A stretch of 64,000 nt of DNA, taken from the IMG/VR virus record IMGVR_UViG_3300037067_027626; one strand, 5' to 3'. Below are positions 40,957 to 64,000 of the stretch, one piece after another. Position 1 is the stretch's first letter. Each line of letters starts with the position of its first letter. Made by a program: the position numbers and the translations under genes. The notes under the pieces are model-generated. The model had not been told where the DNA came from. It searched no databases and saw only the letters and a program-made list of their open reading frames with translations. Source of the stretch: a virus (taxonomy: Duplodnaviria > Heunggongvirae > Uroviricota > Caudoviricetes).

Positions 40957-41160
40957 ATGAGTATATACGCTTTACCGAGAAAGAAGAAATTTCCTTTAGG
41001 GAGCAAAAAACAGGCGATTTCTGCTGTAGCCTATGCGGTTAAATTAGCTAGACCTGAATATAAGAAAATTACACCGCAAGAACGAGATATTGTGTTACGG
41101 AAGGTTCATTCTCGCTATCCTAGTATAAATATTAGTCCAATAAGAAGAAGGAAAAAATAA
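40957..41160 (+). CDS. small basic protein (67 aa)
   Basis: K/R-rich and ends RRRKK. Confidence 0.4.
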   Translation: MSIYALPRKKKFPLGSKKQAISAVAYAVKLARPEYKKITPQERDIVLRKVHSRYPSINISPIRRRKK

Positions 41161-43225: not shown

Positions 43226-46200
43226 ATGATAAAAAAACTCCATTACAATAAATATTTGAGGATTTTACTAACCGCCTTTATATTGGCGGTTTTATGTATT
43301 CCCTCTTTACCTTTATTCCATATAAATCTGTTTGATGTGCCAGTTGGTGCGGCTACAAGGGATTTATATTGGATTGGCGGTAGTGGTGATTGGAGCGATA
43401 CGGCAAATTGGTCATTAACATCAGGAAATTCTGATAATAGTTCACCTCAAGTTGTACCAGATTCAGATGATAATGTGTATTTTGACGCTAATTCAGGGTT
43501 TACGGGGATTAGTAGGACAGTAACAATGAATAGTTCTCCTGGTTATTGTCTTGATATGGACTGGACAGGTGCGCCGAATAATCCAATATTTAATAGACAA
43601 AATAATGCGGATTTATATATTTATGGCTCGCTGACCTTGATTGCGAGTATGACATTTGATGCTGTAGCGGCTAATGGTCGAATTGGTTTTCTGTCTACCT
43701 CTGCGGGCGAAACAGTAACCACCGCAGGAGTAAATCTCAACAATGTGTTATACGGTATGGAATTTGCTGGTAATGGTGGTGAGTGGACATTACAGGATGA
43801 GCTGACTGTTTCTAGTATCACACATACTAAAGGCATTTTAGATACCAATGACCAAACAATCAACTGCAAGGGTTTTTTTACTACTGGCAGTAATGCTAGA
43901 GAGTTAATACTAGGTAATTCCACAATAAATATATCGAATACTGGGTACTTTCAATATACTGGTTCTAATTTAACATTGGGTGAGGGAACTTCAAGTATTA
44001 TAACAGATGGTACGTCTGGAACTTGTAAGTTTTATGGTAATGGCGAAACTTATTATGATGTTCAATTAATCAATGTCCACTCATTATCAACTACCGACAA
44101 TAGTCTCATCAGTGGGGCAAATACTTTTACAACTCTAAGTATTAGCGGGGATGCTTCCACTGGATATACTACTAACATAGATGCAAATCAAATCATCACA
44201 GGTACTCTAACTATTGCAGGTGATTCTGCTGTAAACCGTTTATTAATTCGTTCAGATACCATCGGAACGGCACGTACTTTAACAGCCGCAACCGTAACGG
44301 TATCTAATGCGGATTTTCAGGATATAACGGGTGCTGGTACTGCTTCTTGGAATTTATCTGCAATAACGGGGAAATCAGGCGACTGCGGAGGTAATTCAGG
44401 AATTACCTTTACTACTGCCGATAATATGTATTGGAGCAAAAATAACGGGGCATGGACAGACCCCGCTAATTGGTTCTTAGCGACTAACGGCGGCGGTGGT
44501 GCTGGCAGAGTTCCATTACCTCAAGATACTGCAATATTTGACGCAAATTCCTTTGATGACACGGGTAAAATAGTTACCATAGTTGATAATTATAGAGTTG
44601 GAGATATTGACGCTTCGGGTGCTACGTTTGCACCTACATTCGGTAGTGGCGATTTTAATGTATTAGTCTATGGTTCGATAACATGGGGTGCTATGGATAT
44701 TCACGCCAGTATAGATTGGTTCTTTTATAGCAGGTATAGTGAAACATTAACCTCAGCGAGTAAGACTTTCCCTGATATTACAATCGGTAGCACAAGCGGT
44801 GATGGTATAAGCGGTACATTAACCTTGCAAGATGCCCTTACGTCAAGCGGTATCGTAACTTTGAATAGAGGCACACTAGATTTCAACGACCAGAATGTAA
44901 CTATGGCAACATTCGATTCATCTACTAATACCTATACACGTACTTTATCAATGGGTGATGGCGAAATTACAGTAAACTCAACTGCCGCAGTAAATAAATG
45001 GAATATAGCAACAGGGAGTTTCACGCTTAATAAAGATAACTCGACTTTAATCCTAACTAACTCAGGGACTAACGCACAATCAATTACAGGCGGTGGCAAA
45101 ACATATGATGGTTTAACAATCAAAGGTGCTGGTGTTTATACACTAACATTCAATGATGCGAATACATGGAATACAATGTTAATTGACCGTTCTGAAGCAG
45201 CAAAGACAATCGCTGGCAATGTTATTCAAACTGTTACAAATTTAACAATACCAGTTTCAGGAACAACACAAGTAACTATTACTAATGTTGATTTTGTTAA
45301 ATCTTCTGGAACTGTTGCTTTGGGTTATGTGACAATATCAGGTTCAGTTGTCGATGGTGTCGGTAGTGGTGCAGCGTTTTATGCAGGTGCAACTCCACCA
45401 TCGGTTAATGGTGGTTCTAACTCAGGTTGGAACTTTACAGAACCTTCTGACCCTATCTTAACTACTTTAGGGGCAAGTGAAGTATCATTTTACACTGCAA
45501 AATTAAATGGTGTTCTGGATAGTATGGCAGGACAACCTAATGGTTATATTTCTTTTCAATATAGTACAGACCCCGCATATCCTAGTGATTCTACAGTAGT
45601 ATCAAGCGGAGAATATACAACACTCCCAGGTGAGTTCTTTTATAATATTACATCAGGACTTTCCGCAGGAACTACATATTACTTTCGCATAAGATTCTAC
45701 TATGGTACTACTTATGCTTATGGTTCTACGGTGTTTTTTACGACAGCAGGCGGTACTGGTGTACCTACTGTAATAACGGGTTCAGCCACTAATCCCACAT
45801 CAAGCACAATAACTTTACAAGGTGTAGTAACGGATATGGGTGGCTATACTACCGTGAATCTGTACTTTGATTATGGGGTTACTGCTTCTTATGGCGATAA
45901 TATTACTGCTACCGTACCTACGGCAACTGACATAGGTGCTTTCTCTGTTAAATTAACGAATTTACAAATGAAAACCACTTATCATTTCAGGGCAAAAATC
46001 GGTTATATTGTATCAGGTGTAGAAATATTCGCTTATGGTGCTGATGGTACTTTTACAACTACCATAACAAGCGGAACGGATAGTGGTGGTCAGCCTTTAC
46101 CTAATCTTATATCACAGATATTCAATGGAGGAGTATTTAGTTCCTTTCTTGAAAGTAATGATTTATTATTTATAGCGGAAATTGCTAATACTTATGCAGA

Positions 46201-47011
46201 TAACACTACTAATAAATATTATCCTAACGGCAACATTTCTAAATTATTTGTATTACAGTTAGTCAATACCGATGGCAGTACGGTTTTAGCCCAAGTACCC
46301 TTGAGAGATTGGGGCTTAAAACCCATTTCTATATACATGAATGCCTCAACATCAAGTAATATGACTTTGGGCGAAAATTATATATTAAGACTACACGCTT
46401 TATTCACTGCCTCACCACCTACCGATGTAGATTATACACTTCAGGATGACGATTGGTATGGTAATGATATGAACTCCCTTGATTTCTGGTGTGTATCAGT
46501 AGCAGGAGAGATGAATACCTACTATAGTTTATGGGGCAAAACGGGTTCAATGCTCACTAATACCATAGATAAAGGGGCAATCATCAGTCAGGATGGTACG
46601 GGATACTTCGTTGAGGGAATTCCCGAAATAGATTATGTCAGACCCGATTTATTCTATGCGGTTTCCTCTAAACCTATCTTTACTACAGGAACAGGCACAA
46701 ACGCTTTTGCGGCAAACCATATCTGGACTTCACAGGTAGGTACAAAAATTGCCGCAGACTTTACAACATTCGGGGGATTGTTTGATGTAAACGGCTCAGA
46801 AATGATGGGATGGCTAATTGGTCTGATTATCATATTTATCGTGATATTCTGTGTATCGCAGGGAAGCGGTGCTTTGGGCGGTCTTGTGCTGTGCGTTCCT
46901 TTCCTGATTGCGGGCAATCTATTGGGTGCTATAGGTATACAGATAACGGTAGTCGGCTGTATTCTTTGCTCATTTTTCTTTATAAGGCAGTTTATAATTA
47001 AAACGCTATGA
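43226..47011 (+). CDS. giant surface protein (1261 aa) with N-terminal signal/anchor, beta-helix-like G/T/S-rich repeats and C-terminal TM helices
   Basis: WSDTANW and WTDPANW motifs are typical of right-handed beta-helix (PbH1) repeats. The C-terminal ~70 aa form two hydrophobic helices. Confidence 0.45.
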   Translation: MIKKLHYNKYLRILLTAFILAVLCIPSLPLFHINLFDVPVGAATRDLYWIGGSGDWSDTANWSLTSGNSDNSSPQVVPDSDDNVYFDANSGFTGISRTVTMNSSPGYCLDMDWTGAPNNPIFNRQNNADLYIYGSLTLIASMTFDAVAANGRIGFLSTSAGETVTTAGVNLNNVLYGMEFAGNGGEWTLQDELTVSSITHTKGILDTNDQTINCKGFFTTGSNARELILGNSTINISNTGYFQYTGSNLTLGEGTSSIITDGTSGTCKFYGNGETYYDVQLINVHSLSTTDNSLISGANTFTTLSISGDASTGYTTNIDANQIITGTLTIAGDSAVNRLLIRSDTIGTARTLTAATVTVSNADFQDITGAGTASWNLSAITGKSGDCGGNSGITFTTADNMYWSKNNGAWTDPANWFLATNGGGGAGRVPLPQDTAIFDANSFDDTGKIVTIVDNYRVGDIDASGATFAPTFGSGDFNVLVYGSITWGAMDIHASIDWFFYSRYSETLTSASKTFPDITIGSTSGDGISGTLTLQDALTSSGIVTLNRGTLDFNDQNVTMATFDSSTNTYTRTLSMGDGEITVNSTAAVNKWNIATGSFTLNKDNSTLILTNSGTNAQSITGGGKTYDGLTIKGAGVYTLTFNDANTWNTMLIDRSEAAKTIAGNVIQTVTNLTIPVSGTTQVTITNVDFVKSSGTVALGYVTISGSVVDGVGSGAAFYAGATPPSVNGGSNSGWNFTEPSDPILTTLGASEVSFYTAKLNGVLDSMAGQPNGYISFQYSTDPAYPSDSTVVSSGEYTTLPGEFFYNITSGLSAGTTYYFRIRFYYGTTYAYGSTVFFTTAGGTGVPTVITGSATNPTSSTITLQGVVTDMGGYTTVNLYFDYGVTASYGDNITATVPTATDIGAFSVKLTNLQMKTTYHFRAKIGYIVSGVEIFAYGADGTFTTTITSGTDSGGQPLPNLISQIFNGGVFSSFLESNDLLFIAEIANTYADNTTNKYYPNGNISKLFVLQLVNTDGSTVLAQVPLRDWGLKPISIYMNASTSSNMTLGENYILRLHALFTASPPTDVDYTLQDDDWYGNDMNSLDFWCVSVAGEMNTYYSLWGKTGSMLTNTIDKGAIISQDGTGYFVEGIPEIDYVRPDLFYAVSSKPIFTTGTGTNAFAANHIWTSQVGTKIAADFTTFGGLFDVNGSEMMGWLIGLIIIFIVIFCVSQGSGALGGLVLCVPFLIAGNLLGAIGIQITVVGCILCSFFFIRQFIIKTL

Positions 47012-47727
47012 AAAGATTTATACGTGGTTTTGTATTATTACTCATAATCTTGATTGCCTCTGTACCTGTTTTAGCCGCACCAGGGGATGTATCGGGTGTT
47101 ACCGCTATACCTACGGATGATGAAGTTTCCTTAACATGGATTCGTGGCTCATCGTCAAATACTACAATAATAAGATATCTAAAGACAAACTATCCCACAG
47201 ACCCAACAGGTGCTACCGATGCCAGTGTTTCCGCTTATTCAGGTGTCTTGTTCTTTCATACCGAAACAGGACTGACAGGCGGTACGACCTACTTCTTTAC
47301 ATTATGGGCTTATGACGGAACAGACTATAGTGCCAATGCCACTGCCGCACATATGATGGTCACAACTTACGGTACGGTAAGCGAGGGCGATTCTTTCCCC
47401 TCACCAACTTTCCCTGCTTCTTTTAATCAGACCGCCGATTCTTCAGGATGGTTTAATAAGTTACAGCCTTTTACAGGTGCGATAGATTATTTTGCTACCG
47501 ATTGGGCAATGAATAAAGATATTGCAATGAGCTTGGCGGTATGCGTGGTTATCGTGGTGCTCTCCGTTATCTTATATGTAAGATGGAAGAACATTTTTGC
47601 CGCCTATGGCTTGTCTTTTATCTTAGTATTAGGGGCAACCCAGTTGACTTTACTGCCTTTTTGGGCGATATTTGTTATGCTTGGTTTCGGCTTGGGAATA
47701 TGGGGCATAGAACGAGCATATCAATAA
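47008..47727 (+). CDS. signal peptide + FN3-like domain + C-terminal multi-TM protein
   Basis: Has a cleavable-looking signal (VLAAPGD). PGDVSGVTAIPTDDEVSLTW...GTTYFFTLWAYDG is FN3-like. Three C-terminal TM helices follow. Confidence 0.45.
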   Translation: MKRFIRGFVLLLIILIASVPVLAAPGDVSGVTAIPTDDEVSLTWIRGSSSNTTIIRYLKTNYPTDPTGATDASVSAYSGVLFFHTETGLTGGTTYFFTLWAYDGTDYSANATAAHMMVTTYGTVSEGDSFPSPTFPASFNQTADSSGWFNKLQPFTGAIDYFATDWAMNKDIAMSLAVCVVIVVLSVILYVRWKNIFAAYGLSFILVLGATQLTLLPFWAIFVMLGFGLGIWGIERAYQ

Positions 47728-47747
47728 AATGGAGTATATTTAATTAA

Positions 47748-48089
47748 ATGAAAACTTCATGGATTATCGGTGTTATGATGCTCTACATATCTATTTTCTT
47801 CTATGGCAGTATAATGACAAATGCAAATACTTTAAGTGGCGAAATGGGGCATATATTTAATTTAGCACAACCTACTGGTCTTGACTTGAGCAATCTCATA
47901 ACTGCGGCGTATTCAGTTTCGACTGAGGTTTGGTACTATATGGTAATATTTATTGAAGCTATATTTTTGTGGTTTCCAGGGCTATGGACAGGCAACTGGT
48001 TCTTTGTATGGCTATTTTTATGTGTACCTATTTGCATAGGTATGATATTTGGTATTATTACTATGTTAAGGGGGTCAAGTAGCGTGTAG
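47748..48089 (+). CDS. small multi-TM membrane protein
   Basis: A 113-aa protein with three to four hydrophobic helices. Confidence 0.4.
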   Translation: MKTSWIIGVMMLYISIFFYGSIMTNANTLSGEMGHIFNLAQPTGLDLSNLITAAYSVSTEVWYYMVIFIEAIFLWFPGLWTGNWFFVWLFLCVPICIGMIFGIITMLRGSSSV

Positions 48090-48305
48090 ATGCCTCAACT
48101 ATTAATGGCTCTTATAATTGCTCTCGTATTTGCGATGTTCGGCTTGTTATTTTTCCCTAGCCTGCATACGATGTTGCTTGGAATTGATACTACGGGCATG
48201 GGATATTTATTAACGGCAGGGATTACCTCTATGCCTTATGTCGTGGTATTCGCTATCGTATATGGTGTAATCCTGATAATCAGCAACCGTAATAATAAAA
48301 TCTAG
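48090..48305 (+). CDS. small 2-TM membrane protein
   Basis: A 71-aa protein. Confidence 0.4.
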   Translation: MPQLLMALIIALVFAMFGLLFFPSLHTMLLGIDTTGMGYLLTAGITSMPYVVVFAIVYGVILIISNRNNKI

Positions 48306-48317
48306 GTGTGAAAATAT

Positions 48318-51300
48318 TTGGATGCGTTAGAATATTTTAAATCTCAAGAATTGAAATCGCCCGATGCTCCGAAGCCTTTGGTCTATACGGGTGCTCCCAA
48401 TGTCAGCACACCCATAGGTTATTCTCAACCTATGATGGGCGACCAAACACTAGAGCAGTTTCAACAAGATAATGTGCAACTTCAAGACGGTTCGTGGGTT
48501 ACAAAGGAAGAATACGATAAACTATCCGAGGAAGACAAGGCTTATATTCTGGCGAATGGTATAGAAGCCTATAATAAATACAAACAGGAACAACTTGAGA
48601 TATTTGAGGCGGCTCACGTTAAACTCAATGATGAGTCATGGGTATCGAAAGAAGAATATGATAAATTAAGCGAAGAAGATAAAGCCTACTTAATGCAAAA
48701 CGGTATTGAGGCGTTCAATACCTATAAGAATACACAACTTACGGAATTCAAAACTACTCACATTCAACTTGGTGATGAATCATGGGTTTCTAAAGAAGAA
48801 TTCGATAAACTTTCCGAGGAAGATAAAGCCTATTTAACCGCTAATGGGATTGAGGCTTTCAACATCTACAGACAGGCACAATTACAAGAGTTTGAATCTA
48901 CTCATGTGAAATTAAATGACGGTACATGGGTAACGAAAACAGAATACGACAAACTCTCTGAAGAAGATAAGTTATATCTGATAAATAATGGCGTTACCTC
49001 TTACACCGCTATGGTAACGGAACGGTATAATACCGCTAAATCAACACTACAGAATTTTATCAATCCAGACGGAACTCTTAGATTGAATGAAGCGGTTAAT
49101 GCAGGGATAACGGATTTAAGCGTATATAAGAATGCGGGCTATAACGTAACACAGATAGATGTTGATAATATTAAAAATATACCGCAATATGAAGAACCGA
49201 CACCATTACCAACTCCGATTGAACCTCATCCATTTGACCCGACATACGGGAATTACGTATTAACCAAGCCTGATGAAAATGACCCTACTACTTGGATATT
49301 TACCGACCCGATGACAGGCGAGCAGTATGATTATAACGGGAATTACATTGGGAGTATTCCGCCACCAACCCCACCAGCAAATCAGCCGACTGTTGTATCG
49401 CCAACGGAAGTCGCACCTATTCCAGAGACAGAAGCACATCCGTTTGACCCGACATTCGGTAATTATGATTATGACTCTGAAACTGGAATTTATACCGACC
49501 CGATTACAGGGGAACAGTATGATACTAACGGGAAATATCTAGGTAATGTTGCCCCACAAACACTGCCGAATTATACTCCGCAGTTAGTTAATATTTCACC
49601 GACAGCACCTAATGTAGTAGAGGCTTATAATCCCGATAATAATATGGGGCTTACTACCGCACCGTCTTACGGGGCAATAGACATATCTTCGGGAATGATT
49701 TGGGATGGCACAAAATGGATAACCTCTGCCGAAGCAAAAGAGAGAGGGATAGAGTCAAGGGGATATTATGACCCGATGCAACGCAGTGAAGGTGGTCAAT
49801 TAACGGGCGGAAATTACATAATCTCAAACGGTATTTTAATCCCGACTACTTTCGACCCGACTAAAATTGCCCCAAGCAATATTACGATAGAAGGCGATTT
49901 AGGAACAGGTTATGTCATAAAAATAGACGGGAATGTTTTGAGTACCCAAGGTATGACACCCGACCAGGTTACCAGATGGATAGCAGACATGGGCGGAAAT
50001 CAAATGGCAATTATGCAGTGGGTAATGACCGATGTAGGTATGAGAGGCGGTATGGCGGGTGCGGATAATCTTGCTTTAAAGGCTTCGGAAACTTATCAGT
50101 ATCTAACAAATACCTATAATAACTCAACAGGGCAATTACAATATCAGACTGGCGTTACTCTAGGACTGTTTAAAGATACCGATATACCGATATTTAATGA
50201 CGAAGGGAAAATATCAGGGATAATTACATCGGAAATGCAGAAAGATATGTCCTCAGAAATACTAGACATATTAAGGTCGGCAGACAGAAACAGTATTGAC
50301 TCAGTCAATAAAGCCATAGAAATCGCCAATAACTTATATAAAGGCAACGAAATCAACATGGATGATATGTCTTTCCTTGTTGATGTTTTAGGGCAAGAAA
50401 AAGCCGACCAGTGGGTTGCCAATATTAGGGCGAAACTTGCAGAACAACAGGCTATCGCAGATTATAACAACGATTTAGTTACCACTCTTTCAACGAGTAT
50501 ATATAATGATATTTCTAACGGCAGAGAGCCTAACTTCCAATATGTAGCACTCTTAAAGACTCTCTTAGGTGAAGAAGGGGAAAAGATTGTCAATGAGTGG
50601 ATAGATAAAATTACCACTCAGGGCATTAAAATAAAGGCATTATCGAGTAGTATATTAAACGCTATAGAAAACAGTGGTAAGGCAAATCCCGATGATGTGG
50701 CGGAATTAGAGAAATTATTAGACCCACAGGCGGTTGCGGAATGGATAGATAATTTAAAATCCGATAAATTTACTAAGGGATTAAAAGGCACTACACTACA
50801 GCAAGCCTCACAAAATATTTCACAGGTACTTGCCGAAAATCCTGATGCAGAACTGGATGCCAATGATGTTTCGGGTCTTATATGGGGAATGGGGCAAGAT
50901 GAGGCTAATGATTGGATAGAAAAAGTAAGGCAACAGAACAGGGATATAAATATACTATCCGAGAAAATACAGAACGATATTTGGAACGGTAAAGCACCTA
51001 ATCCCGAAGATGTTGCTCAATTGTCTGATTTAGTTACACCTCAAACCGCACAGGCTTGGATAACTACATTATCAGATAAACAAAAAGGTTTTGCAGATAG
51101 TCTAAAAGCCTTACCTCAAGAATTACAGGATGCCTATGCTATGGGCGGAATGGAAGGGTATCTACAGGCGGTAGATGCTTACAATAAAAATCTTGAGGAA
51201 AATTTCACCATAGTAGGGCGAGATGGAAACGGGAATCCTTTATATCTATCCAATACTGAACATGTCGCATTAATGGATAGGTTATCCAAAGACCCTGATG

Positions 51301-54300
51301 GGTTTAATATTTATCAAGAAAGAGGGCTTCAGGGATATTATCAATATGTAGTAGATAGAGAGAAATTACTTGGGGAATACGGAATAATACAAGATGGTAA
51401 AATCAATATAAATAATCTCACTAATAGTGTCAAAGGTGGGCTTGTAACTGCGAGTTTTGTGGCAGGTGGTACAGGATTATCGGTAGATGATATTAATAAA
51501 ACAGTTAATGCTGTAGATAAACTTAGACTTGATGGCTATATGTCTATGGATGGTAGTTCCATAAATGTCTATAAAATTATTATGGATGGTGGCAAAGATA
51601 TAAATTACGCCAAGGCATTACTTGGTGAGGATATAATTAATCAATACGAAGCTGACATTCAAAACCAATATTCTGCACAAAGAAGCCTAACTTATAGCCT
51701 ATTACCCTTTGCGACTAACAATATTGAATTGAGTTCTTTGGGTGTTGAACCAAAACTTACCGATTTAAAACTTACTAATCAAGGCTTAACTAATTTCCTT
51801 GTGGCAAATAATAACTCTCAAGAAGCACGACAAAAGTTAAAAGATGCAGGATTTACCGAAGAAGACATAAAAGATGTCTCTATAAAAGCCCAAACAACTA
51901 TTGATTCTTTAAATAATATTCAAACAAAATTAAATAATAAAACATTGGCTCGCACAGAACATGAAGCATTAACAAATGCTATGAAACTCAATGGTGCGGA
52001 GTTAGAGTTTAAAGGTGGTATTTATTACGCAAACGGTCAGGAATTACCGCAGAATGTTTATGACTATTTAGACCGCACAATTCAAATATGGAATACCTTA
52101 TCGGATGAACAAAAGGCTTTAGTATCGCAGACATACGATGCTGATGAATTTAAGGGTAATCCATTTGCTGAGTTTATTAATACTACTAATATAGCGTCTG
52201 CAAATAATATTCCTTTACAGTTAATCACATCACCTATATCAATAATTGGTACTCCCATAGCTAAAGTTACAACAGGGCAAAATACTACACCTTTGGAATG
52301 GGCTGAAGCGGGTGCTATGGCAGTTATTATCGCCTTGAGTTTGGGTGGCGGTGTTGTACTGGGAACTGCCAGAGGTGCGGTAGTAGCCAGTGGGGATATT
52401 ATAGGTGGATTAGGTAGTAAAGTCGGGTTAGGAACAGCAGGGAAAGTAATAACTTACGGATTAGAAACTGGTGCAACTAGCATATTTGTTGCACCTACTA
52501 TTCCTGTAATACTAGACCCGAAAACATCGGCGTTAGATAGAAATGTGGCGATTGCCTTTGATGTATTAATGATAGGCGGTTTATTGTTAGGGGGTCATAG
52601 CCTTGCTAAATCCATTACCGAAAGTGTTAAAAAAGGAAAGGCTATCCCTGTTAATATCGCTAAAGAAGCAGAAACACAAAACAAAATATTAAATACTGTT
52701 ATTCAGGCAAATAAGGATTTCATTAGTAAGGAATTAATTAAAGACCCTATACAGGCACAAAAACTAGAGATTGCCTATAATAACATGGCAAAAGCCATAG
52801 ATGATTATTCTAAAACTTCACTAGAGTTAAAGCAAACACAAAAAGCTATAAGTGATATAGAGTTTGCTAAAAATCCAGCAGAATTAGACCTGCTTAATAA
52901 ATTAAAAGCGAAAGCAGATGATTTAACCATAAAGTTAAATGGGTTACAAAAACCCTTGGATAGTTCAGTAAAATATTATAATGATTTGTTGGGCAAAAAT
53001 TTAATCGGTGCACCACCAGAAGTAATTTCCGCATTAGATGAAATGCCTAAAACAATCAGGACACAAGTAGATGCCGTAACAACTGAAATAGTAGCACCAA
53101 GAAATATGGAATCTATAGCTAGAGATATTACTGATGTATCAAATCAAAAGGATTATATCAGTGATTATCTAAAGAATAATAAAGTTACCACACAAGAACT
53201 GATGGATTACAATAGAATATTAGACGACTTACAATCGCAACTTGCTTCGTTAGAGAAAGAGTCAAGATTAAAATTCTTGGAAACTGGTGAAATAATAAAA
53301 ACCACAGAAGGCGGATATGAGATAGAAGCCAAATCATTACAACAAAGATTGCTTGATATAAATAAAGATATTGAAACATTAAAGAAAACATCAACCTCTA
53401 CATTAAATCCACCGTTAGAAATGGCAATCGGTAAGGTTACTATAGAAAGGGATATATTTGAGGGGATTCAACGGACTACCGAGACAGTAGATAAAACTGG
53501 TAGAAAAAGTTATGGTTATATCCTAGAACAGTTAAATCAAAATCTTAATGATTTAATAAAAATATTAGATGATTCGGGGTTGCCTAAAGAAAGGTATGTC
53601 GATGTTATCTTGGATTTCTCTAAAGGTATAAGACTGAAAGACGTAAAACTCTTGAATTCAGCTATTGCTAAATTACAACTAGAGGCAGGGAAATTACCAC
53701 CGCAAGCAAAATTACTTACAGACGCTAAAATAAAATTATTAGGTACTTACGCTGATGATGTTTTGAGCCGTTTTAAGGGTGTTGATACTTTTACAAATCC
53801 CATAAAAAGTAGTACGGGTGATATATTCAGGGCTGTTAAAGATGTTGACTACGACAGAATAATTAATGAAAACATTAAAGCACAAGCCGAGAGAATAGTT
53901 TACGATAGGATTAGTAAATTAGTTGAAAGATTACCGTCTAATATAGGTAGGCGGAAGATGGCAGAGATATTGGATTATCTTAAAAAAACAACTTATGATG
54001 ATAAATATTTTACGGAAAATTATGGTGGGAAATATAAGAATTTAGACGAATTCTTGGATATAGAGAAAATAGAGGCTGAACTGAGGGAAGAATTAAAAAG
54101 ACGCAAAGAAATAGAGGAAATGAAAGCGGATATAGCTTCGCATGAGGCAGAAAAGGCTAACGCTGATAGATTTAAGGATAGTGTTAGTAATCCTGATTTG
54201 AAAAAGAAGTTGGAAGATTACTCCAATAACTTTAAAAAAATAATAGAAGAAAAGAAGAAACAAGTACAAACAGCCGAAGCCAATAAGACAATACAAACAA

Positions 54301-56759: not shown

Positions 56760-56968
56760 AAAGGCTATTGACAAAGAGGTGAAAATGTAGTAGTTTAATC
56801 AAAATACAATATATATTAATATACTATGAAATCTATATTATTGACCCTAGATGATGATGTGAAGCAAGCCCTGAAAGCGGAAGCTGATAAATTGGGCATG
56901 AAACTTGTGACTTATATACGTATGATACTTATTAAAAGTCTTAAAACCAAACAAGGGGGATATTAAAG

Positions 56969-57508
56969 TTGAGTGCGGAAAATGTAATTTTAGTATTTGC
57001 TGTGTTATTTGTCTGTTTTATATGGTACTCCATTAATAATCTCAAGAATAAAGTATTGGTGATTTATACCCGTAATACAGGACAGGAAATATCCAAGTTA
57101 GTAAGGCTTCAAGACCGCTACGTAGATTTCGATAATAAACAGTTTACCTTAGTACCCGACAGACATAGATTACATTGGAAATCAGTTTTAGGATTATTCG
57201 GTACATGGATAATTTGCTATCATATTTACTGGTATTCACGTTATCCGTCAGACCCACGCAGATTTGAAGTAACAGTGGATAGTCCCTCCGCCGCACATTA
57301 TATGAATGAGGAGCAATCCTATACCGCTTATAATAAATCAGAAGCCGCCAGAGATACATTAAAGAAACGTGGCGGATTTATGCAGTATCTACCTTATATT
57401 ATAATAGGTATAGTTTTAGTGGTCATTATATATATAGTGTGGACTCAGGGTAAAGATATGACCATTATTAAAGGTGCTTTACAAGATATAATAAACGGAA
57501 CGACTTAA
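56969..57508 (+). CDS. membrane protein with N- and C-terminal TM helices
   Basis: A 179-aa protein. Confidence 0.4.
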   Translation: MSAENVILVFAVLFVCFIWYSINNLKNKVLVIYTRNTGQEISKLVRLQDRYVDFDNKQFTLVPDRHRLHWKSVLGLFGTWIICYHIYWYSRYPSDPRRFEVTVDSPSAAHYMNEEQSYTAYNKSEAARDTLKKRGGFMQYLPYIIIGIVLVVIIYIVWTQGKDMTIIKGALQDIINGTT

Positions 57509-57521
57509 AGGATAAGATAAA

Positions 57522-58001: not shown

Positions 58002-58017
58002 AGTTTGAGGGATTTTC

Positions 58018-58839
58018 ATGTCAGAGATAGATGTTGAAGAAAGATTAGAAGAAATAGAAGAACTGCAAGAGCACGAACCGATAGAGAATGCAAAGCAACC
58101 ATTTACAAGTGCCAAGTTGACTATGATTGTCGGTGAGCAGGGTTCGGGTAAATCAACTATTCTGGCGGCAAAGGCAGTAGACGCTACTTATAAAGGTCTG
58201 ACAAGAATTAGGGTATTTTTACCCGATAGGGGTGATGGTCAAGAGCATTACTACGATGTGAAAGCCTCACCTGCTTTAAACGAAGAAGGGAAACCGATAA
58301 TAGGCTATGCCACAATCTATCTACCTAATAAAGAACCTTTTATTGCTCAAGTTCCTGTAAATGCTTATGCTATAGCTGATGGAGTGAGGATTTTTTATAA
58401 CGGGCATTATTACGGAATAAGATATATGCACGTAGAAACCGCCGATATAATTCAGTATATAAATACCGCATTATTCATGGATGGCATCATCAACTATGAT
58501 GAAGGCTATATAGGGGCGAGCAACAGAAGCAGTATGAGTTCGTTGGGGCAGACTATAACGGATTCTATGAACCAAATACGCAAGAGAAGGATACATTTTA
58601 ATATTGCTTCACCGCAAGACGGTCAATTAGACAGAAGATTCAGATTAACCAGAACAGAACGTATTATATGTTCTTATGATGAAGTTAAGGGTGAAGTCAC
58701 CGCAAAAATACAGAAGGCTAAAAAAAGAGAGAAAATAATTTCTTTTGATGCCACATTATATAGACCGTATTTTAATACTAATGAAAGATATAAACTATTG
58801 GAAAGTAAAGTAAGTAAGGCTTACCAAGAAGCTATGTAA
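58018..58839 (+). CDS. P-loop NTPase (FtsK-HerA/Zot-like small ATPase)
   Basis: Walker A GEQGSGKST is at residues ~39-47. A candidate Walker B is GIINYDEGY. At 273 aa it lacks any nuclease domain. Confidence 0.5.
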   Translation: MSEIDVEERLEEIEELQEHEPIENAKQPFTSAKLTMIVGEQGSGKSTILAAKAVDATYKGLTRIRVFLPDRGDGQEHYYDVKASPALNEEGKPIIGYATIYLPNKEPFIAQVPVNAYAIADGVRIFYNGHYYGIRYMHVETADIIQYINTALFMDGIINYDEGYIGASNRSSMSSLGQTITDSMNQIRKRRIHFNIASPQDGQLDRRFRLTRTERIICSYDEVKGEVTAKIQKAKKREKIISFDATLYRPYFNTNERYKLLESKVSKAYQEAM

Positions 58840-58840
58840 G

Positions 58841-61800
58841 ATGAGATTTTTTAAGAATAATAAAAAGATAGTCTGCTCAGGCTTAGTTGCTTTATTAATA
58901 GCCGTTACAGTTTTTGTGTCCTCTGCTTCTGTAGGCGTTTCTATTACTTCAAAGGGCGAATATATCTCTTTTTCTGTTAGTCAATTAGCGGTTCAAGCCG
59001 AAATTAAGAATGAATTACCTGCTAAAACTCCAGAACAAATAAAAGCAGCCGCTCTTGATGAATATAAAGGTTCAACATTAACAACTAAATCTACGAATCA
59101 ATACGAAATATCCTATTCTGGAACTGGCTCTAAAATAGAAATAGGCGATTCTGCGAAATCTGCTGATTTTAGACCAGACTTAACTATATCACAGTGGAAT
59201 GGCGAGGCGAGTTTTAAATTAATTGCTCCTATTGATATTGAGGGAAAATCTCAATTATCAGCATCATTTAATTCAATTAATAAATCCATTTCTGCCTCAA
59301 ATGGCGAATGGATATTCGAATATAAAGCCACTGAACCAAAAGAAGGATTTAACGATTATGGCGGACTTGATATATTCATTACCGCTAAATCTAAACCACC
59401 TTCAAACAAAATTTACTTTACATATGATTCCAGTACGGTTACGCCTTATTTACAACCGTCATTAACTCAAGAATATAAAAATGGCTATTCTGAGGAATTT
59501 CAAACAGATATCAAAGTTACTGATACCGAAGTGACTAACTCAAAAACTGGAGATGTTTTAACTTCTCGCCCTGATTATGTGGTTAATTCAATCGCTTTTT
59601 ACGCTGATGGAAAATCCAATTACGTAATAGGCGGAATTAATTATCAGACAGGAAAAGTCGGGCATTTGTATAGAATGCAGATTAATGGGGAATGGTGCGA
59701 TTGGAGTATTGTAGGAAATTACATTGTACTAAACATACCTCAAAAAATACTTGATACAACTACATATCCTATCACCATACAACCGCTAGGAGATACGTTT
59801 GGATATACCAGTGCGGGGGGGACTGCTTTAGAAAAATATACAAATAACTTTATAGGGGGGTTATTTACATCCCCAGCAGATATTTCTACTGCTACAGTTA
59901 ATTCTATTACTGCATGGGTAAAGGAAGGTTATTCGGAAACAGCCTACTTTAAGGGTATGATGGTACTCCAGTCAAATCTTAATATAGTTAGTAACGGGAC
60001 TGGGAGTGCCTCATCCGCCATAACTGGAGTTATGGGTAGTCCAGCCGAAAGAACCAGTGATTTTGCAACTCCACCTACACTCTCTAATTCTACTGCATAT
60101 GTTATAGGGGCAGTATGTACTGCACCAACTGGTGTTAATTTCTATGGTGATACTGTAACTGGGCAAACAAGATACCAACAAATAACAAATAGTTATTCTT
60201 CACCTTCAAACCCAACAACAGCAACTACAACGTCTAACAGGCGAGTTTCCATCTACTGTACCTATACGTCAAGTGCAAGTGTAACAGTAACCTCAATTTC
60301 TCCTGATTATGGTTCAACGTCAGGGGGGGCTTCAGTTAATATTACTGGTACTGGTTTTACTGATGCGACAGGGGCAACCATAGGGGGAGGTGCAGTAACC
60401 AGTTTTTCTGTAGTTAGTGATACTGCTATTACAGGGGTGTCACCATCTGGAACGGCTGGGGCTAAAGATGTTGTTGTTAATGCAACATCAGGTAATGGGA
60501 CTCTAGTAAATGGATTCTATTACGTGCAAGCAGTTACTAATGTTTCAACGGTTGCTGAATGGAAGACTAATAGTTCTGTTCAGTCGGTACGTATTCCATT
60601 TCAAAGTAAAATATTTACAGCCTCTGGAAGAACATGGGTATTCCATTGCGTAGATAATTCGATGTATTTCACATCGTCAACAGACGGGGTAATTTGGAAC
60701 GCAGCCACGTTAATTGCCTCAACTTATTTTGATTATGAATTTGCTTCGCATTGGGATGGTACTCACGTAACAATAGTTTACGCCAAACAGACTGCCAACG
60801 CTCATATGTTTTTTCGCAGAGGATCTCCGCAATCTGATGGAACAATAACATGGGATACCGTAGCTACGGATATTTACACTCCTACAAGTGGATATAGTTG
60901 TGCTGACCCTACGTTGTGTGTAAATTCCAATGGATATGCCTTTATCGGTTTCTGTATGTACGATGGTTCTAAGGGTAATCCTCGTGTTCTGAAAAATGCA
61001 GATAATGATGGTACATGGACTCAGGATACTGATACGGAATTAGATACTAGAGGTATAACAGCATCAAAACCCGAAATGGTTTCTCTCGTGGCGCTCACTT
61101 CGGGTAAAGTTTATGGCATATATGCAATAATATATGCCAGTTCCAACCAAAGAATATATGGTAAACTTTGGGATTCTGGATGGGGTGCTGAGGAAACAAC
61201 CACCACTTCCTATCTCGACCAAGCATATTATGATATGTGGACAGCAATATCTATCGGTGATGATGTCCACCTAGTTTTTAATGAGGATACGACCTCAGAT
61301 TTAATTTATGCAAAAAGGACTTATGGAGCTGGCACGCCCTGGGGAAACGAAGTCACAATTCAGTCAGCGACAACAGACCATACTTGTCCTGCAATTTCAA
61401 CTAACGGCTCTAACTTAACAGTATTCTGGCTAAGTATCTCAACCGATATAGTATATGTAAAAAATTGTATCTCTGATTCTTGGGATGCTGACCCGATAAC
61501 AGTTGCCGATGAATCGACTAACGGAATATTGGGTGCAAGCATTATAAATGTTACCCAAAATGCAACAAATGATATCTTTGGAATTGTTTATGATATTTGT
61601 GTTGCATCTCCGTATTTTACCAGGTATGCAAAGTATGGACTAAGTATTTCAAATACACCGTCTTCAAAAGACCTTGGTGTAGTTGCTGAAAACACAACCT
61701 ATTATGCTTATGGTACTGCCCCCCACAATCCTGTAGTTGATGGGGATTGTACTTTTAGTATATCAAATAACGGGACTACATCTATAGATATTGATATTCA

Positions 61801-62026
61801 TGGTCATTCATGTACTGGTGGAGTAGGTTGGACATTAAATAGTACGCCAGGGTCGGATAATATTACGATTACAACCTATACTACAGGGGATAATCCTACT
61901 ACAGATGGCGTTATAGTAACTACAAGCGACCAAGAGTTTATTTCTAATTTGGCATCAGAAAACCATACTCATTGGGATTTTAAATTTCAGACGGGGCAAT
62001 TTACTGATGCGGCAACTAAAACTTGA
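58841..62026 (+). CDS. giant secreted/anchored protein (1061 aa) with IPT/TIG and BNR/sialidase-like repeats
   Basis: Has an N-terminal TM/signal. The IPT/TIG-like segment reads VTVTSISPDYGSTSGGASVNITGTGF. BNR-like S.DGV.W motifs are present. The C-terminal IHGH domain is shared with 62098..62679. Confidence 0.45.
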   Translation: MRFFKNNKKIVCSGLVALLIAVTVFVSSASVGVSITSKGEYISFSVSQLAVQAEIKNELPAKTPEQIKAAALDEYKGSTLTTKSTNQYEISYSGTGSKIEIGDSAKSADFRPDLTISQWNGEASFKLIAPIDIEGKSQLSASFNSINKSISASNGEWIFEYKATEPKEGFNDYGGLDIFITAKSKPPSNKIYFTYDSSTVTPYLQPSLTQEYKNGYSEEFQTDIKVTDTEVTNSKTGDVLTSRPDYVVNSIAFYADGKSNYVIGGINYQTGKVGHLYRMQINGEWCDWSIVGNYIVLNIPQKILDTTTYPITIQPLGDTFGYTSAGGTALEKYTNNFIGGLFTSPADISTATVNSITAWVKEGYSETAYFKGMMVLQSNLNIVSNGTGSASSAITGVMGSPAERTSDFATPPTLSNSTAYVIGAVCTAPTGVNFYGDTVTGQTRYQQITNSYSSPSNPTTATTTSNRRVSIYCTYTSSASVTVTSISPDYGSTSGGASVNITGTGFTDATGATIGGGAVTSFSVVSDTAITGVSPSGTAGAKDVVVNATSGNGTLVNGFYYVQAVTNVSTVAEWKTNSSVQSVRIPFQSKIFTASGRTWVFHCVDNSMYFTSSTDGVIWNAATLIASTYFDYEFASHWDGTHVTIVYAKQTANAHMFFRRGSPQSDGTITWDTVATDIYTPTSGYSCADPTLCVNSNGYAFIGFCMYDGSKGNPRVLKNADNDGTWTQDTDTELDTRGITASKPEMVSLVALTSGKVYGIYAIIYASSNQRIYGKLWDSGWGAEETTTTSYLDQAYYDMWTAISIGDDVHLVFNEDTTSDLIYAKRTYGAGTPWGNEVTIQSATTDHTCPAISTNGSNLTVFWLSISTDIVYVKNCISDSWDADPITVADESTNGILGASIINVTQNATNDIFGIVYDICVASPYFTRYAKYGLSISNTPSSKDLGVVAENTTYYAYGTAPHNPVVDGDCTFSISNNGTTSIDIDIHGHSCTGGVGWTLNSTPGSDNITITTYTTGDNPTTDGVIVTTSDQEFISNLASENHTHWDFKFQTGQFTDAATKT

Positions 62027-62097
62027 GTTATTACACTGACTGCGAGGGCTGTCACGTAAAGGTCGAAATCTTGAATACAAAAGGAGGTGAGAAAAAC

Positions 62098-62679
62098 ATG
62101 AAGCATAAAAAAAGATTAAATATTAAAGTATTAAGCGTATTAATAGCATTAACGATGGCAATTTCTCTTACCTTTGGGTTGGGTGTACCCGCAATGGCTT
62201 CGACCAATGCGGAAGTAACAATCACGGCAACGCCAGAATATCTTGCCATGACAAATAGCGAGGATAACTGGACATTGGGTATGGTAGCGGCATCCACTAC
62301 ATATTGGTGGACACCTACTGGTGTCGCACCTGCTGGTGCAATAGATGATGCTGAGTGTAATAGTACTCTTACTAATACAGGAACGGTTACATCGGATATA
62401 AAGATTCATGGGCATAACTTTGCCGCAGCAGCAGGGGCTTGGGCATTAGATGTTAATGGTTCACCTGCGGCAGATAACGTAACTATAAAGTATGGCTGGT
62501 CTGGACTGGGTGATGTCGGTTCTATGCAATTCCTGACTTTATCCGATACTTTTGTTACTACGTTAGCACCATCATCAGCCAATACAAGCAAATGGTTAAT
62601 GAGCCTTGAAACAGGTACATTTACTGCGGGCGATGATGAAACTGGTATTGTAACATTAACTGTATTTAAGCATGTTTAA
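62098..62679 (+). CDS. secreted protein with IHGH domain
   Basis: AAAGGAGGTGAGAAAAACATG start context. Signal peptide ...GVPAMA/STN. Carries an IKIHGHNF motif paralogous to the C-terminus of the upstream gene. Confidence 0.45.
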   Translation: MKHKKRLNIKVLSVLIALTMAISLTFGLGVPAMASTNAEVTITATPEYLAMTNSEDNWTLGMVAASTTYWWTPTGVAPAGAIDDAECNSTLTNTGTVTSDIKIHGHNFAAAAGAWALDVNGSPAADNVTIKYGWSGLGDVGSMQFLTLSDTFVTTLAPSSANTSKWLMSLETGTFTAGDDETGIVTLTVFKHV

Positions 62680-62753
62680 AATAGATAGAAGCGGTGCGAA
62701 GCCGTCATGAGACTGAAAGATATTAACTAGACCTCAAATTGGAGAATTTTAAC

Positions 62754-63551
62754 GTGAGATTAAAGGTAATAAACTTAATGGCAATAGGAGTGATATTGTT
62801 GAGTAGTTGTGCTTCAGTAGCAAATACGGAAACTGATGTTATCGAAACTGTAATTGCTACTGAAACCACAACAGAAATGGTAGTGGAAACTATAACAGGA
62901 AATGTACCTACAGAAACAACAACTACCACTATACCTACTGCTACAACCACTAAAATAACTCCGATTAACGAAACAAGTATAACAACAACGTCTACGACAA
63001 CCACTACCACGATGATTACTACTACTAAAAGTACACCAAATCCCGATATACCGATTAAAATAGATTTCTATGAGGAAATTAACGAATACGGGGCAGGGTC
63101 AATAGATGGGACAAAATGGTTTGCCCAAATATTTACTGCTCAAATAGATTATGTATTAACGAGTGTCAATTTATACGGTTGGTGTACTGGCTCACCGAAT
63201 ACGGTAAGTGTTCGTATACGGGCAATTAACGGGAACATACCTATGGGGAATGACTTGGCAGTAGGAGTAGCCGATGCTAAATTATGGGGAATTGGTGAAA
63301 GTGCAAGGGATTGGTACGAAGTAGCATTTCTCCAGTCTTTCAGATTAAATAAAAATACTCAGTACGCTTTGATAAGTAGTGCTGAAGGCGATATTAATAG
63401 TAATTTTAATTGGGTTTACATAAATTCTGGTAAGTATGAAGGCGGTAACGCCAGTATTTCTACGAATGGGGGAAAAACATTCGGTGATGGCGGAACTTTT
63501 GAGAGGGATTTTGCATTTCAGATATTTGGTAAACCCGTAGGGGTTAGTTAG
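62754..63551 (+). CDS. lipoprotein with Thr-rich linker
   Basis: GTG start with GGAGA 8 nt upstream. The lipobox is LLSSC. A long T-rich linker is followed by a globular domain. Confidence 0.4.
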   Translation: MRLKVINLMAIGVILLSSCASVANTETDVIETVIATETTTEMVVETITGNVPTETTTTTIPTATTTKITPINETSITTTSTTTTTTMITTTKSTPNPDIPIKIDFYEEINEYGAGSIDGTKWFAQIFTAQIDYVLTSVNLYGWCTGSPNTVSVRIRAINGNIPMGNDLAVGVADAKLWGIGESARDWYEVAFLQSFRLNKNTQYALISSAEGDINSNFNWVYINSGKYEGGNASISTNGGKTFGDGGTFERDFAFQIFGKPVGVS

Positions 63552-64000
63552 GTGTTTAAACGATTAACGATAGTAAATCTGATTATAGTGAGTATATTAA
63601 TGGTAGGATGTAGCCCTTCGATAGCAATAACAACACCAAAGAAATTGACTACGATTACATCGAAGGTTACGGAAACGTCTAAATCTACAACCTATATACC
63701 CGCAGTTACTTCTACCTCAGAAATAGAGGCAAGACTGATGAATGATACTTGGGTATCACCTGCCGAAGTCAATATCTCTAAGTTTTATGCGGGAGCAAGG
63801 GCGGAATGGACAATAAAAATACACAACGGCAATGATTTGCTTACACGTACCGAGAAGTATTCGGTTACAACCGAGCCGTTGGAAACTAAAGTTCCCATAA
63901 AAATCAAGAAACCACTGGCTAATGGGGATTTTAGCGGTGTTATAGTAACAAGTGATAGTTCTAAGGATAATTTAAAAGCGGTTGCGTATAATATTGCGAC
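63552..64000 (+). CDS. lipoprotein (3' partial at window end)
   Basis: GTG start with lipobox LMVGC. The ORF runs off the window. Confidence 0.35.
   Translation, partial: MFKRLTIVNLIIVSILMVGCSPSIAITTPKKLTTITSKVTETSKSTTYIPAVTSTSEIEARLMNDTWVSPAEVNISKFYAGARAEWTIKIHNGNDLLTRTEKYSVTTEPLETKVPIKIKKPLANGDFSGVIVTSDSSKDNLKAVAYNIA

Follow-up and report, generated by a model that had tools for sequence, protein, structure and literature searches.

A conserved gene module with a Zot/pI-like ATPase in a large, probably archaeal virus-like lineage that may assemble at the membrane

Genes of the plus-strand block

The DNA analysed here (the window) is a stretch of 64,000 nucleotides (nt) from the IMG/VR virus record IMGVR_UViG_3300037067_027626. 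It is divided into three parts, a minus-strand block (1-33.8 kb), a stretch poor in open reading frames (ORFs; 33.9-38.9 kb) and a plus-strand block that runs from ~40.9 kb to the end, and it is the plus-strand block, together with an intron-split gene upstream of it, that is considered here as a possible virion morphogenesis module. A preliminary description had recorded large surface-type proteins, a tape-measure-like giant, small membrane proteins and a compact ATPase between 43226 and 64000, and all ORFs of that interval were recovered at the same positions and sizes. The element is represented by a 124,964-bp JGI contig, of which 73.5 kb was readable, and a Logan contig that is identical (100%) to the window over 15,983 shared bases extends the block past the window end. 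With membrane features called by a Kyte-Doolittle scan, the following genes are found (aa, amino acids; TM, transmembrane):

40957-41160, plus strand: 67-aa basic protein, first conserved gene of the block
41889-42296, plus strand: 135-aa very basic protein
43226-47011, plus strand: 1261-aa spike-like protein with an N-terminal signal, a repeat-rich ectodomain, weak fn3, and a C-terminal stalk and TM cluster (residues 1188-1261)
47008-47727, plus strand: 239-aa protein with a signal, an FN3-like domain and three C-terminal TM segments (166-234)
47748-48089, plus strand: 113-aa membrane protein, essentially all TM
48090-48305, plus strand: 71-aa protein, essentially all TM, with two hydrophobic helices and a basic C terminus; second coat-protein candidate
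48318-56759, plus strand: 2813-aa giant with a fourfold N-terminal peptide repeat, two central Gly-rich TM segments, a Pro/Thr/Glu-rich linker and conserved C-terminal domains
56826-56966, plus strand: 46-aa ORF, ribbon-helix-helix-like by eye, with a gene call on Logan and ENA contigs
56969-57508, plus strand: 179-aa protein, core gene, with one N-terminal and one C-terminal TM segment around a soluble middle of ~110 aa
57522-58001, plus strand: 159-aa soluble acidic protein, core gene that always adjoins the ATPase gene
58018-58839, plus strand: 273-aa Zot/pI-like P-loop ATPase without a TM segment, with a beta-rich insert at about residues 63-127
58841-62026, plus strand: 1061-aa secreted protein with an N-terminal signal, a TIG domain (Pfam E 2.5e-8) and a C-terminal domain paralogous to the 193-aa protein
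62098-62679, plus strand: 193-aa secreted protein with an N-terminal signal
62754-63551, plus strand: 265-aa lipoprotein-like protein with an N-terminal signal, a lipobox (LSSC) and a Thr-rich linker
63600-64000, plus strand: conserved gene running past the window end (gene call of 246 aa on the Logan contig; an upstream GTG start would give 262 aa, the lipobox being present in the longer form only)

Searches of all block proteins against Pfam, PHROGs and NCBIfam returned almost no matches. The signal and C-terminal TM cluster that had been ascribed to the 1261-aa protein were both present, as were the signal and C-terminal TM segments of the 239-aa protein, and the FN3-like character of the latter is suggested by weak Pfam matches (fn3 and Pur_ac_phosph_N, E ~3-5e-3, found for both proteins). 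The secreted and lipoprotein-like character of the 193- and 265-aa proteins and the TIG domain of the 1061-aa protein also stood, whereas Pfam detected neither the BNR repeats proposed for the 1061-aa protein nor the beta-helix proposed for the 1261-aa protein in the window proteins. The 113- and 71-aa proteins fit their earlier description as TM-only and the 179-aa protein, with its soluble middle, does not. An AlphaFold2 model of the 159-aa protein, built from three sequences, is all-helical at low confidence (predicted local distance difference test score, pLDDT, 46), and a profile search with its family against PDB sequences gave no signal.

Conservation of the module in related contigs

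Synteny of about 15 genes extends to at least seven further metagenomic contigs (L004, L005/6, L012, L014, L020, a JGI contig and an 80.5-kb IMG/VR contig), and pairwise BLAST supports the homology of these genes. Since the same order recurs in at least seven independent, diverged contigs, the arrangement is not due to chance. The module opens with one or more anchored spikes, the 113-aa family, a 66-71-aa two-helix protein, the giant (in variable position) and a 175-196-aa TM-bracketed protein, and continues with a 145-178-aa soluble protein, the ATPase, a large secreted protein, smaller secreted, lipoprotein-like or TM proteins and a small winged helix-turn-helix protein. It ends with glycosylation genes that encode GtrA, a family 2 glycosyltransferase (GT2), a conserved 380-480-aa GT-C-like protein and a TMEM260/PMT_2-type GT-C. 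The triad of the 179-aa, 159-aa and ATPase genes is invariant across the related modules; homologues of the 179-aa protein occur in all relatives whose DNA was read, and the 113-aa family occurs in every related module that was readable, the L020 contig starting inside the module. The guanine-plus-cytosine (GC) content of the relatives ranges from 35 to 45%, which indicates that the lineage spans different hosts.

The IMG/VR relative, an 80,562-bp contig (IMGVR_UViG_3300029288_004207), was read from 15.5 to 73.3 kb. There a small hydrophobic gene is followed by genes for a conserved 63-aa protein and a giant of 3275 aa, for spikes and members of the 113-, 179- and 159-aa families, and for the ATPase and secreted proteins; then come a glycosylation island of ~20 kb, transposases and membrane proteins, and a 932-aa anchored surface protein. 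Its 63-aa ORF (L023 9815-10006), which precedes the giant and spike genes, is like the 67-aa protein of the window in translations compared by eye and unscored, and the 135-aa protein matches a 103-aa protein of L004 (blastp E 7e-6). The C-terminal 370 aa of the 1261-aa protein are conserved in L012, L014, L005 and L025, and homologues of the 239-aa protein occur in L014 (E 3e-27) and L012. In the translations of the IMG/VR relative, two IS1595-like transposases and a TnpB/OrfB-like protein stand around the coat-like gene and the glycosylation island (transposase-related loci L023 1973-2917, minus strand; L023 7514-8578, plus strand; L029 13396-14319, minus strand); PHROG transposase families were matched in its protein set and were not assigned to single ORFs.

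The giant has at its N terminus (aa 40-230) four ~45-aa peptide repeats (…DESWVSKEEYDKLSEEDKAYL…), followed by the two Gly-rich hydrophobic segments (residues 1329-1352 and 1410-1430) and by a (T/E/I/V)P-rich linker that is encoded by imperfect 24/48-nt DNA tandem repeats (DNA 54890-55040). It has domains in common with the giants of L012, L004 and L025; the last ~20 residues (…RYYLGKPIKP…) and a ~130-aa domain (…GSAYKT…DVDLG…) are also conserved in giants from three further contigs, and a profile search with its conserved domain against PDB sequences gave no signal. The Gly-rich TM segments had been noted in the preliminary description, but the likeness to a tape measure drawn there was not borne out, as no Pfam or PHROG family, tape measure included, matched the 2813-aa protein. 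The position of the giant is not fixed, because it is missing between the genes of the 71-aa and 179-aa families in L014. The giant of L004 bears two HExxH motifs.

The ATPase belongs to the Zot/pI superfamily

Pfam matches of the 273-aa protein are limited to the Walker-A region and there is no nuclease domain, as the preliminary description had indicated. A word-index protein search gave 20 relatives, all metagenomic, and a profile of these 20 homologues found 786 members among 1.84 billion representatives, 51 of them at E<1e-30. Among 86 distant family members, 64 matched Pfam Zot (PF05707), 72 matched phrog_20922 ('head morphogenesis'), 61 a 'Zot-like toxin' PHROG and 52 'morphogenesis protein I of M13'. 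In profile comparisons (hhalign) the window subfamily aligned with the ATPase of Lokiarchaeota virus WyrdV1 at 98% probability (E 1.5e-13) over 131 columns, which extend past the P-loop up to a shared C-terminal Y..YF.T.E motif, and with a Moorella protein at 93% (E 4.7e-7). The comparison with SSV1 B251 is marginal at best (26%, E 7.4e-4), that with HRPV-1 VP8 (4.7%, E 0.0086) does not place the protein with pleolipovirus-type ATPases, and His1 ORF16 (1%, E 0.045) is unrelated at this sensitivity. A distant member of the family matched the ATPases of WyrdV1 (E 2e-14) and Muninn virus (3e-11) and a protein of Moorella phage MCACPph1 (2e-4) by tblastn, and the window ATPase itself gave no tblastn match in phage genomes. 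Judged from its sequence relatives, the ATPase is a member of the Zot/pI superfamily, which serves filamentous-phage assembly, and is homologous to the TM-less wyrdvirus ATPase; it is through this protein only that the lineage is tied to known viruses. IMG/VR and 185,579 GTDB species genomes, when scanned with the ATPase or its profile, each yielded a single weak match, and therefore the module is not a common prophage.

The wyrdvirus ATPase is pI-like yet lacks a TM domain, and extrusion-like assembly was inferred by the authors who described it (10.1101/2021.07.29.453957). It lies in a module that comprises a ~80-aa two-helix capsid protein, an adhesin and a block of unknown genes (10.1101/2021.07.29.453957). 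A member of the ATPase family is also encoded by Moorella phage MCACPph1 (OR602863.1, 17147-17785), a 20-kb integrase-bearing element of a bacterial Firmicute in whose automatic annotation no head or tail genes were recognised and which may represent the same mode of assembly in bacteria. Because this homologue exists, the ATPase alone does not fix the host domain.

As one possibility, the preliminary description had raised a PRD1/Bam35-like virus, which would have a membrane inside an icosahedral capsid of double-jelly-roll protein and would package its genome by an A32/FtsK-type ATPase, and a small ATPase next to many small membrane proteins would suit such a virus. However, the sequence profiles group the ATPase with the Zot/pI and wyrdvirus ATPases and not with FtsK-HerA (A32-like) packaging ATPases, so that only the Zot half of the earlier label 'FtsK-HerA/Zot-like' is retained. 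The module also contains no capsid-sized soluble protein and no double-jelly-roll candidate: apart from the ATPase, each of its proteins longer than 200 aa is secreted or membrane-bound, none matches a Pfam or PHROG capsid family, and the sole conserved soluble partner, the 159-aa protein, is predicted with low confidence to be all-helical. A PRD1/Bam35-like virion thus seems scarcely credible.

A small hydrophobic protein is encoded by a gene with six group I introns

The intron-split gene forms a terminator-closed unit of its own that heads the late block. Its features, with scores against the Rfam group I model (RF00028), are:

37185-38640, plus strand: gene for an 80-aa hydrophobic two-helix protein, a candidate coat protein, with seven exons and six group I introns
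37185-37231, 37435-37493, 37687-37699, 37903-37925, 38128-38134, 38341-38359 and 38566-38640, plus strand: exons of 47, 59, 13, 23, 7, 19 and 75 nt, giving a 243-nt coding sequence
37232-37434, plus strand: intron 1, the most degenerate copy, aligned with the other five (20.8 bits, E 0.06)
37494-37686, plus strand: intron 2 (34.4 bits, E 1.3e-6)
37700-37902, plus strand: intron 3 (54.4 bits, above the gathering score, E 1.3e-12)
37926-38127, plus strand: intron 4 (39.7 bits, E 3e-8)
38135-38340, plus strand: intron 5, whose 3' splice site is the least certain (19.4 bits, E 0.04)
38360-38565, plus strand: intron 6 (66.6 bits, above the gathering score, E 2.7e-16)
38625-38658, plus strand: terminator-like 15-bp hairpin closing the gene

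The six tandem introns, each of ~200 nt, are paralogous (~60-78% identical) and each matches the full group I model; two of the six reach the RF00028 gathering score of 50 bits and the other four are clear paralogues. RNAalifold on the intron copies gave 38 pairs, 21 of which show compensatory changes. An Rfam scan of the whole window at the gathering threshold reported none of them, a 7-kb scan at an E-value threshold found all six, and a 31-kb scan missed a 71.7-bit intron in L023, which shows that large-window scans with default filters lose such AT-rich introns; more of them may lie elsewhere in the window. The 5' splice sites were placed at the U.G pair of P1 and the 3' sites at the first G past a conserved post-P9 motif. 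The 5' site of intron 1 was shifted by 4 nt after the reading frame had been seen, and its new position fits the P1 register of the other five introns.

When joined, the exons form one 80-codon ORF that has an ATG start and a stop within the strong terminator hairpin; with splice-site sets jittered by +-6 nt, 0.56% yield an ORF of at least 80 codons. In the product, MKAIFALILAAIGLYIGVNLLPGLNTTIATITTPTYSTGVSGMVGVTLIVSHVGSPDCSRHERVILHVKLYPFVVVKESE, the loop between two hydrophobic helices contains an NxT sequon, and the tail is charged. Residues 7-50 of this protein are encoded without interruption in the IMG/VR relative, at 70% identity, in a stretch that spans junctions 1-4 and reaches junction 5. 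Because the same residues are encoded contiguously there, comparison of the two sequences confirms exon junctions 1-4 and, approximately, junction 5; junction 6 is a prediction, and junctions 5 and 6 are the less certain. The gene of the relative contains a single group I intron (71.7 bits) that is homologous to intron 6 and lies near the same place, and the 77-aa product of the spliced gene can be aligned with the 80-aa product of the window over the full length of both. The idea that the introns interrupt tRNA genes was rejected, because ARAGORN found no tRNA in the spliced exons. Staphylococcus phage Twort has three group I introns in one gene. Like such multi-intron phage genes, the present one combines several group I introns in a viral protein gene with a homing-type HNH gene nearby, but here six paralogous introns occupy 243 nt of coding sequence, with exons down to 7, 13, 19 and 23 nt, in an element that probably has an archaeal host.

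HNH-type endonuclease genes are unusually numerous in the window, with at least 4-5 copies (10800-11417, 27985-29046, 38932-39681, 41161-41748 and further small ORFs), and one of them directly adjoins the intron array. As the introns themselves contain no ORF, the HNH proteins are possible homing endonucleases that would act in trans.

The 71-aa and the spliced 80-aa proteins have the two-helix architecture of the ~80-aa capsid proteins of spindle-shaped viruses such as His1 VP21 and SSV1 VP1, although profile matches to the capsid proteins of His1, WyrdV1 and Muninn virus are ~2% or less with very shallow profiles. The N-terminal half of the 80-aa product shows weak similarity to the 71-aa family (hhalign E 5e-4, probability 32%), and the two may be paralogous coat proteins, as are found in fuselloviruses and wyrdviruses. 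When the 71-, 113-, 179- and 159-aa families were compared by hhalign with proteins encoded next to the capsid and ATPase genes of His1, WyrdV1, Muninn virus, SSV1 and HRPV-1, probabilities were ~3% or lower from shallow profiles of 3-5 sequences, and HRPV-1 VP3 and ORF2, 5, 6, 7 and 9 gave nothing above 10% with any of the four families. Whatever the type of virion, the crowding of six paralogous group I introns into 243 nt of coding sequence is an extreme case of intron colonisation. With exons of 7-59 nt (75 nt for the last) and a one-intron allele in the relative, the array is suited to asking what is the shortest exon that a group I ribozyme tolerates and how introns spread within a gene.

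Head and tail genes are not found near the module

About 96 window proteins were scanned, each against Pfam or PHROG at least (not all against both), and none matched a terminase, portal, capsid, tube, sheath, baseplate or tail family, in agreement with the preliminary description of the block. In the 9.5 kb directly downstream of the window, where it had proposed to look, TerL, portal and HK97 capsid proteins are all missing from the precomputed Pfam matches. The 58 kb read of the 80.5-kb relative (the last 8.5 kb judged by reading translations) showed no hallmark of a head or tail, and none of tube, sheath, baseplate, portal, TerL or capsid genes adjoins the module in at least eight contigs for which annotation or sequence was read.

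These findings bear on the possibility that the element is a member of Caudoviricetes, with its head and tail-tube genes in the unread part of the contig, the giant as its tape measure and the secreted proteins as accessory surface-modification or receptor-binding factors, in line with the first of the two explanations offered in the preliminary description (tail, tape-measure and receptor-binding genes in an atypical order). In favour of this possibility, the replication and accessory genes are like those of tailed phages, the unread part of the contig amounts to ~51 kb, and the Gly-rich hydrophobic segments of the giant resemble those of some tape measures; in the protein set of the relative, one protein, probably the 3275-aa giant, matches phrog_167 'tail length tape measure' (E 6e-13). 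However, the putative fibres bear signal peptides and C-terminal TM anchors, which is incompatible with tail assembly in the cytoplasm, and the relative's giant gave no tblastn match in 50,697 phage genomes, just as the window giant matched no tape-measure family. The giant is moreover gone from its usual place in the L014 module, and head and tail genes are missing next to the module in every contig read. A tail module of a tailed phage is disfavoured by this evidence, and a tailed virus is in our view quite improbable.

A glycosylation island follows the module and suggests an archaeal host

Past the window end, the Logan contig encodes a lipoprotein-like protein, a 286-aa FN3/TM protein and small genes, and then:

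L019 13420-20798 (window-equivalent 66.2-73.5 kb): glycosylation island with GlmS, a PMM-type phosphomutase, an acetyltransferase, a nucleotidyltransferase, a 480-aa GT-C-like protein, GT4, a helix-turn-helix protein and a 735-aa STT3/AglB_core-like protein

Wherever the downstream flank of a relative was read, glycosylation genes come after the module, and conservation extends to the 480-aa GT-C. The 735-aa product has precomputed Pfam matches to STT3 and AglB_core-like families. Its first 420 residues were readable, and residues 9-407 match Archaeoglobus fulgidus AglB (3waj/5gmy) by phmmer at E 1.2e-30; this fragment matches no bacterial PglB or eukaryotic STT3 at E<=1 and finds no homologue by tblastn in 50,697 phage and archaeal-virus genomes. 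The density of sequons in the spikes is not above compositional expectation. The IMG/VR relative also encodes DUF2206 and a TFIIS zinc ribbon. An archaeal host is likely, as judged from the AglB, the Asgard-virus relatives of the ATPase, the DUF2206 protein and TFIIS ribbon of the relative and many small CxxC ORFs, and the bacterial host implied in the preliminary description is probably wrong.

The abundance of surface proteins raises the possibility of a plasmid-like or other extrachromosomal element, in which glycosylated adhesins and a membrane ATPase would form a surface or vesicle apparatus for cell contact or for DNA transfer in vesicles, as with haloarchaeal plasmid vesicles, with no true capsid. 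No capsid homologue is proven and no integrase was seen, the large module proteins are all surface proteins, the element is large with an extensive glycosylation island and transposases, and searches with the ATPase show its family to be virtually absent from IMG/VR, all of which would suit such an element. On the other hand, the only characterised ATPase relatives found are virion-morphogenesis ATPases of viruses, the 80.5-kb relative is catalogued in IMG/VR as viral, and the rest of the window is phage-like. In addition, it is typical of viruses to have HNH/homing endonucleases and to harbour group I introns in a small gene that looks structural and is presumably highly expressed. We therefore regard a plasmid or vesicle apparatus as unlikely, if less so than a tailed virus. 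A Borg-like element of Methanoperedens was also considered, in view of the low GC content, strand-polarised blocks and glycosylation genes; nothing tested gave a link to it, and the gene content is virus-like.

A proposed membrane-assembling virus lineage

It appears moderately probable that the block serves morphogenesis and egress in an uncultivated lineage of non-tailed double-stranded DNA (dsDNA) viruses or virus-like elements, large in genome (at least 80-125 kb) and most likely archaeal, that assembles at the membrane. Protein architecture, gene order and the ATPase suggest a particle that would be spindle-shaped, pleomorphic or filamentous and would not have an icosahedral head and tail. 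The general thrust of the second earlier explanation, a non-tailed architecture, is thereby kept on the strength of the Zot/pI-like ATPase, the small membrane proteins and the anchored spikes, and its PRD1/Bam35 version is dropped.

We propose that the spike-like proteins (1261, 239, 1061, 193 and 265 aa), which carry signals and C-terminal helices or lipid anchors, would be exported by Sec and held by these anchors on the outer face of the cytoplasmic membrane. They may then be glycosylated by the element's own enzymes, whose genes for sugar-nucleotide synthesis, GT2/GtrA-type lipid-sugar carriers, GT-C and AglB are linked to the module. The small two-helix proteins (the 71-aa and the intron-split 80-aa protein), as suggested by their size, architecture and position, could collect in the membrane as coat subunits. 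The TM-less ATPase may be recruited by the 179-aa and 159-aa proteins, with which it forms the invariant triad, and would drive the assembly or extrusion of a DNA-containing particle at the membrane without lysing the cell, a route that has likewise been suggested for filamentous phages and for archaeal viruses of spindle shape. More speculatively, the membrane-spanning giant, variable in size and position, might be a virion or entry component.

Several systems offer points of comparison. Wyrdviridae (WyrdV1) and Muninn virus have, like the present element, a homologous TM-less pI-like ATPase in a module with small two-helix hydrophobic protein(s), a large adhesin (putative in the present element) and small, partly membrane-bound genes of unknown function, and WyrdV1 has an O-methyltransferase annotated '(carbohydrate)' near its module, much as carbohydrate-modifying genes lie near the module here. 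The large secreted, C-terminally anchored proteins of the module may have a role like that of the adhesins of spindle-shaped viruses. The wyrdvirus and Muninn virus genomes, however, are 12.7-15.6 kb as against at least 80-125 kb, no homology to the WyrdV1 or Muninn capsid protein or intervening genes was detected, and the present lineage additionally has a giant of 2-3 kaa, multiple anchored spikes and a full glycosylation island with AglB. Replication genes are of Rep_O/IstB type here, whereas some wyrdviruses have a DNA polymerase or a rolling-circle endonuclease. In His1 and SSV1 (Halspiviridae and Fuselloviridae), a ~70-80-aa two-helix capsid protein and signal-peptide spikes with C-terminal anchors show a like architecture, the late block includes a glycosyltransferase as here, and His1 ORF23 has N- and C-terminal TM segments like the 179-aa protein; sequence or profile similarity to their structural proteins was not found, and the genome here is ~6-8x larger. 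The pI/Zot proteins of inoviruses (Tubulavirales) belong to the same ATPase superfamily (PF05707, PHROG 1675/197, PDB 2r2a), lie near small hydrophobic coat-like proteins and serve a membrane-associated assembly without lysis, which may by analogy apply here. Inoviruses have small single-stranded genomes. In contrast to inovirus pI, the ATPase here lacks a TM or periplasmic domain, no HUH Rep family was found among the window proteins scanned, in which Rep_O/IstB-type genes occur instead, and the genome is large and phage-like (contig of at least 125 kb), presumably dsDNA, with large glycoprotein spikes.

A number of points weigh against a non-tailed, membrane-assembling archaeal virus. No particle has been seen. 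The 71- and 80-aa proteins are candidate coat proteins by architecture alone, and the module proteins other than the ATPase have no detectable homology to virion proteins of His1, WyrdV1, Muninn virus, SSV1 or HRPV-1. A size of 80-125 kb is several-fold above that of the spindle-shaped viruses compared. The phrog_167 match in the relative remains, as do ~51 kb of unread sequence in the 124,964-bp contig and 22 kb in the 80.5-kb relative. Two Phage_rep_O proteins, an IstB/DnaC-like ATPase, YopX, DUF5131 and HNH_3 are typical of tailed phages, bacterial ones included; Rep_O, IstB and YopX count, together with the ATPase homologue in the 20-kb bacterial Moorella 'phage', against an archaeal host in particular.

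To our knowledge, the non-tailed membrane-assembling archaeal viruses found so far are small, ~10-90 kb at most. If the proposal is correct, extrusion or budding of the pI type can serve genomes of more than 100 kb, viruses that use it can encode a complete glycosylation pathway including an oligosaccharyltransferase, and a 15-gene morphogenesis module is conserved in which nearly all proteins lack known relatives. In its fullest version, the proposal is of very large (80-125 kb) archaeal viruses with spindle-shaped or pleomorphic particles that are extruded through the membrane. These would exceed other non-tailed archaeal viruses known to us severalfold in size, would decorate their spikes by their own N-/O-glycosylation including AglB, and would have a major coat gene colonised by up to six group I introns, with exons down to 7 nt. 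This version is put forward tentatively and is open to considerable doubt.

Other features of the window

GC content across the window is 32-40%, and tetranucleotide usage is uniform among its segments and the DNA past its end (r 0.89-0.97). No tRNA was found in a search of the window, and scans for sigma-70 promoters and intrinsic terminators showed no enrichment able to decide the host domain. The minus-strand block comprises ~70 genes, for the most part small, and by its gene families is virus-like in content: two Phage_rep_O paralogues, an IstB/DnaC-like ATPase, DUF5131, PAPS reductase, RlaP, SPFH, radical SAM, YopX and several HNH proteins. Its replication genes are:

5243-7717, minus strand: two adjacent Phage_rep_O paralogues (283 and 205 aa), followed by an IstB/DnaC-like AAA+ protein

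This replication module is of bacterial-phage style in an element that otherwise looks archaeal, and short tandem repeats within the first rep gene (6557-6783) could form an iteron-type origin. Accessory genes, all on the minus strand, encode a proteasome-subunit-like protein (17258-18142, E 6e-7), an SPFH/Band 7 protein (8852-9820), an RlaP nucleotidyltransferase (9873-10799) and PAPS reductase (14312-15106). ORFs of <60 aa in gene gaps at ~2920-3040, 5117-5242 and 19800-20098 (minus strand) encode CxxC...CxxC zinc-ribbon peptides, and arrays of small Zn-finger proteins similar to these are annotated in His1 and WyrdV1.

A ~3.3-kb ORF-free region (33900-37180, 30% GC) separates the divergent gene blocks and is a candidate replication origin or control region. 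It contains the minimum of the cumulative GC skew, iterons (AATTCCACATCTTA, three copies at 35094-35203, and ATTCCCTATT, three to four copies at 35615-35697), a perfect 19-nt tandem duplication at 35545-35597 that gives rise to a 25-nt palindrome, and a strong hairpin at 36786-36826.

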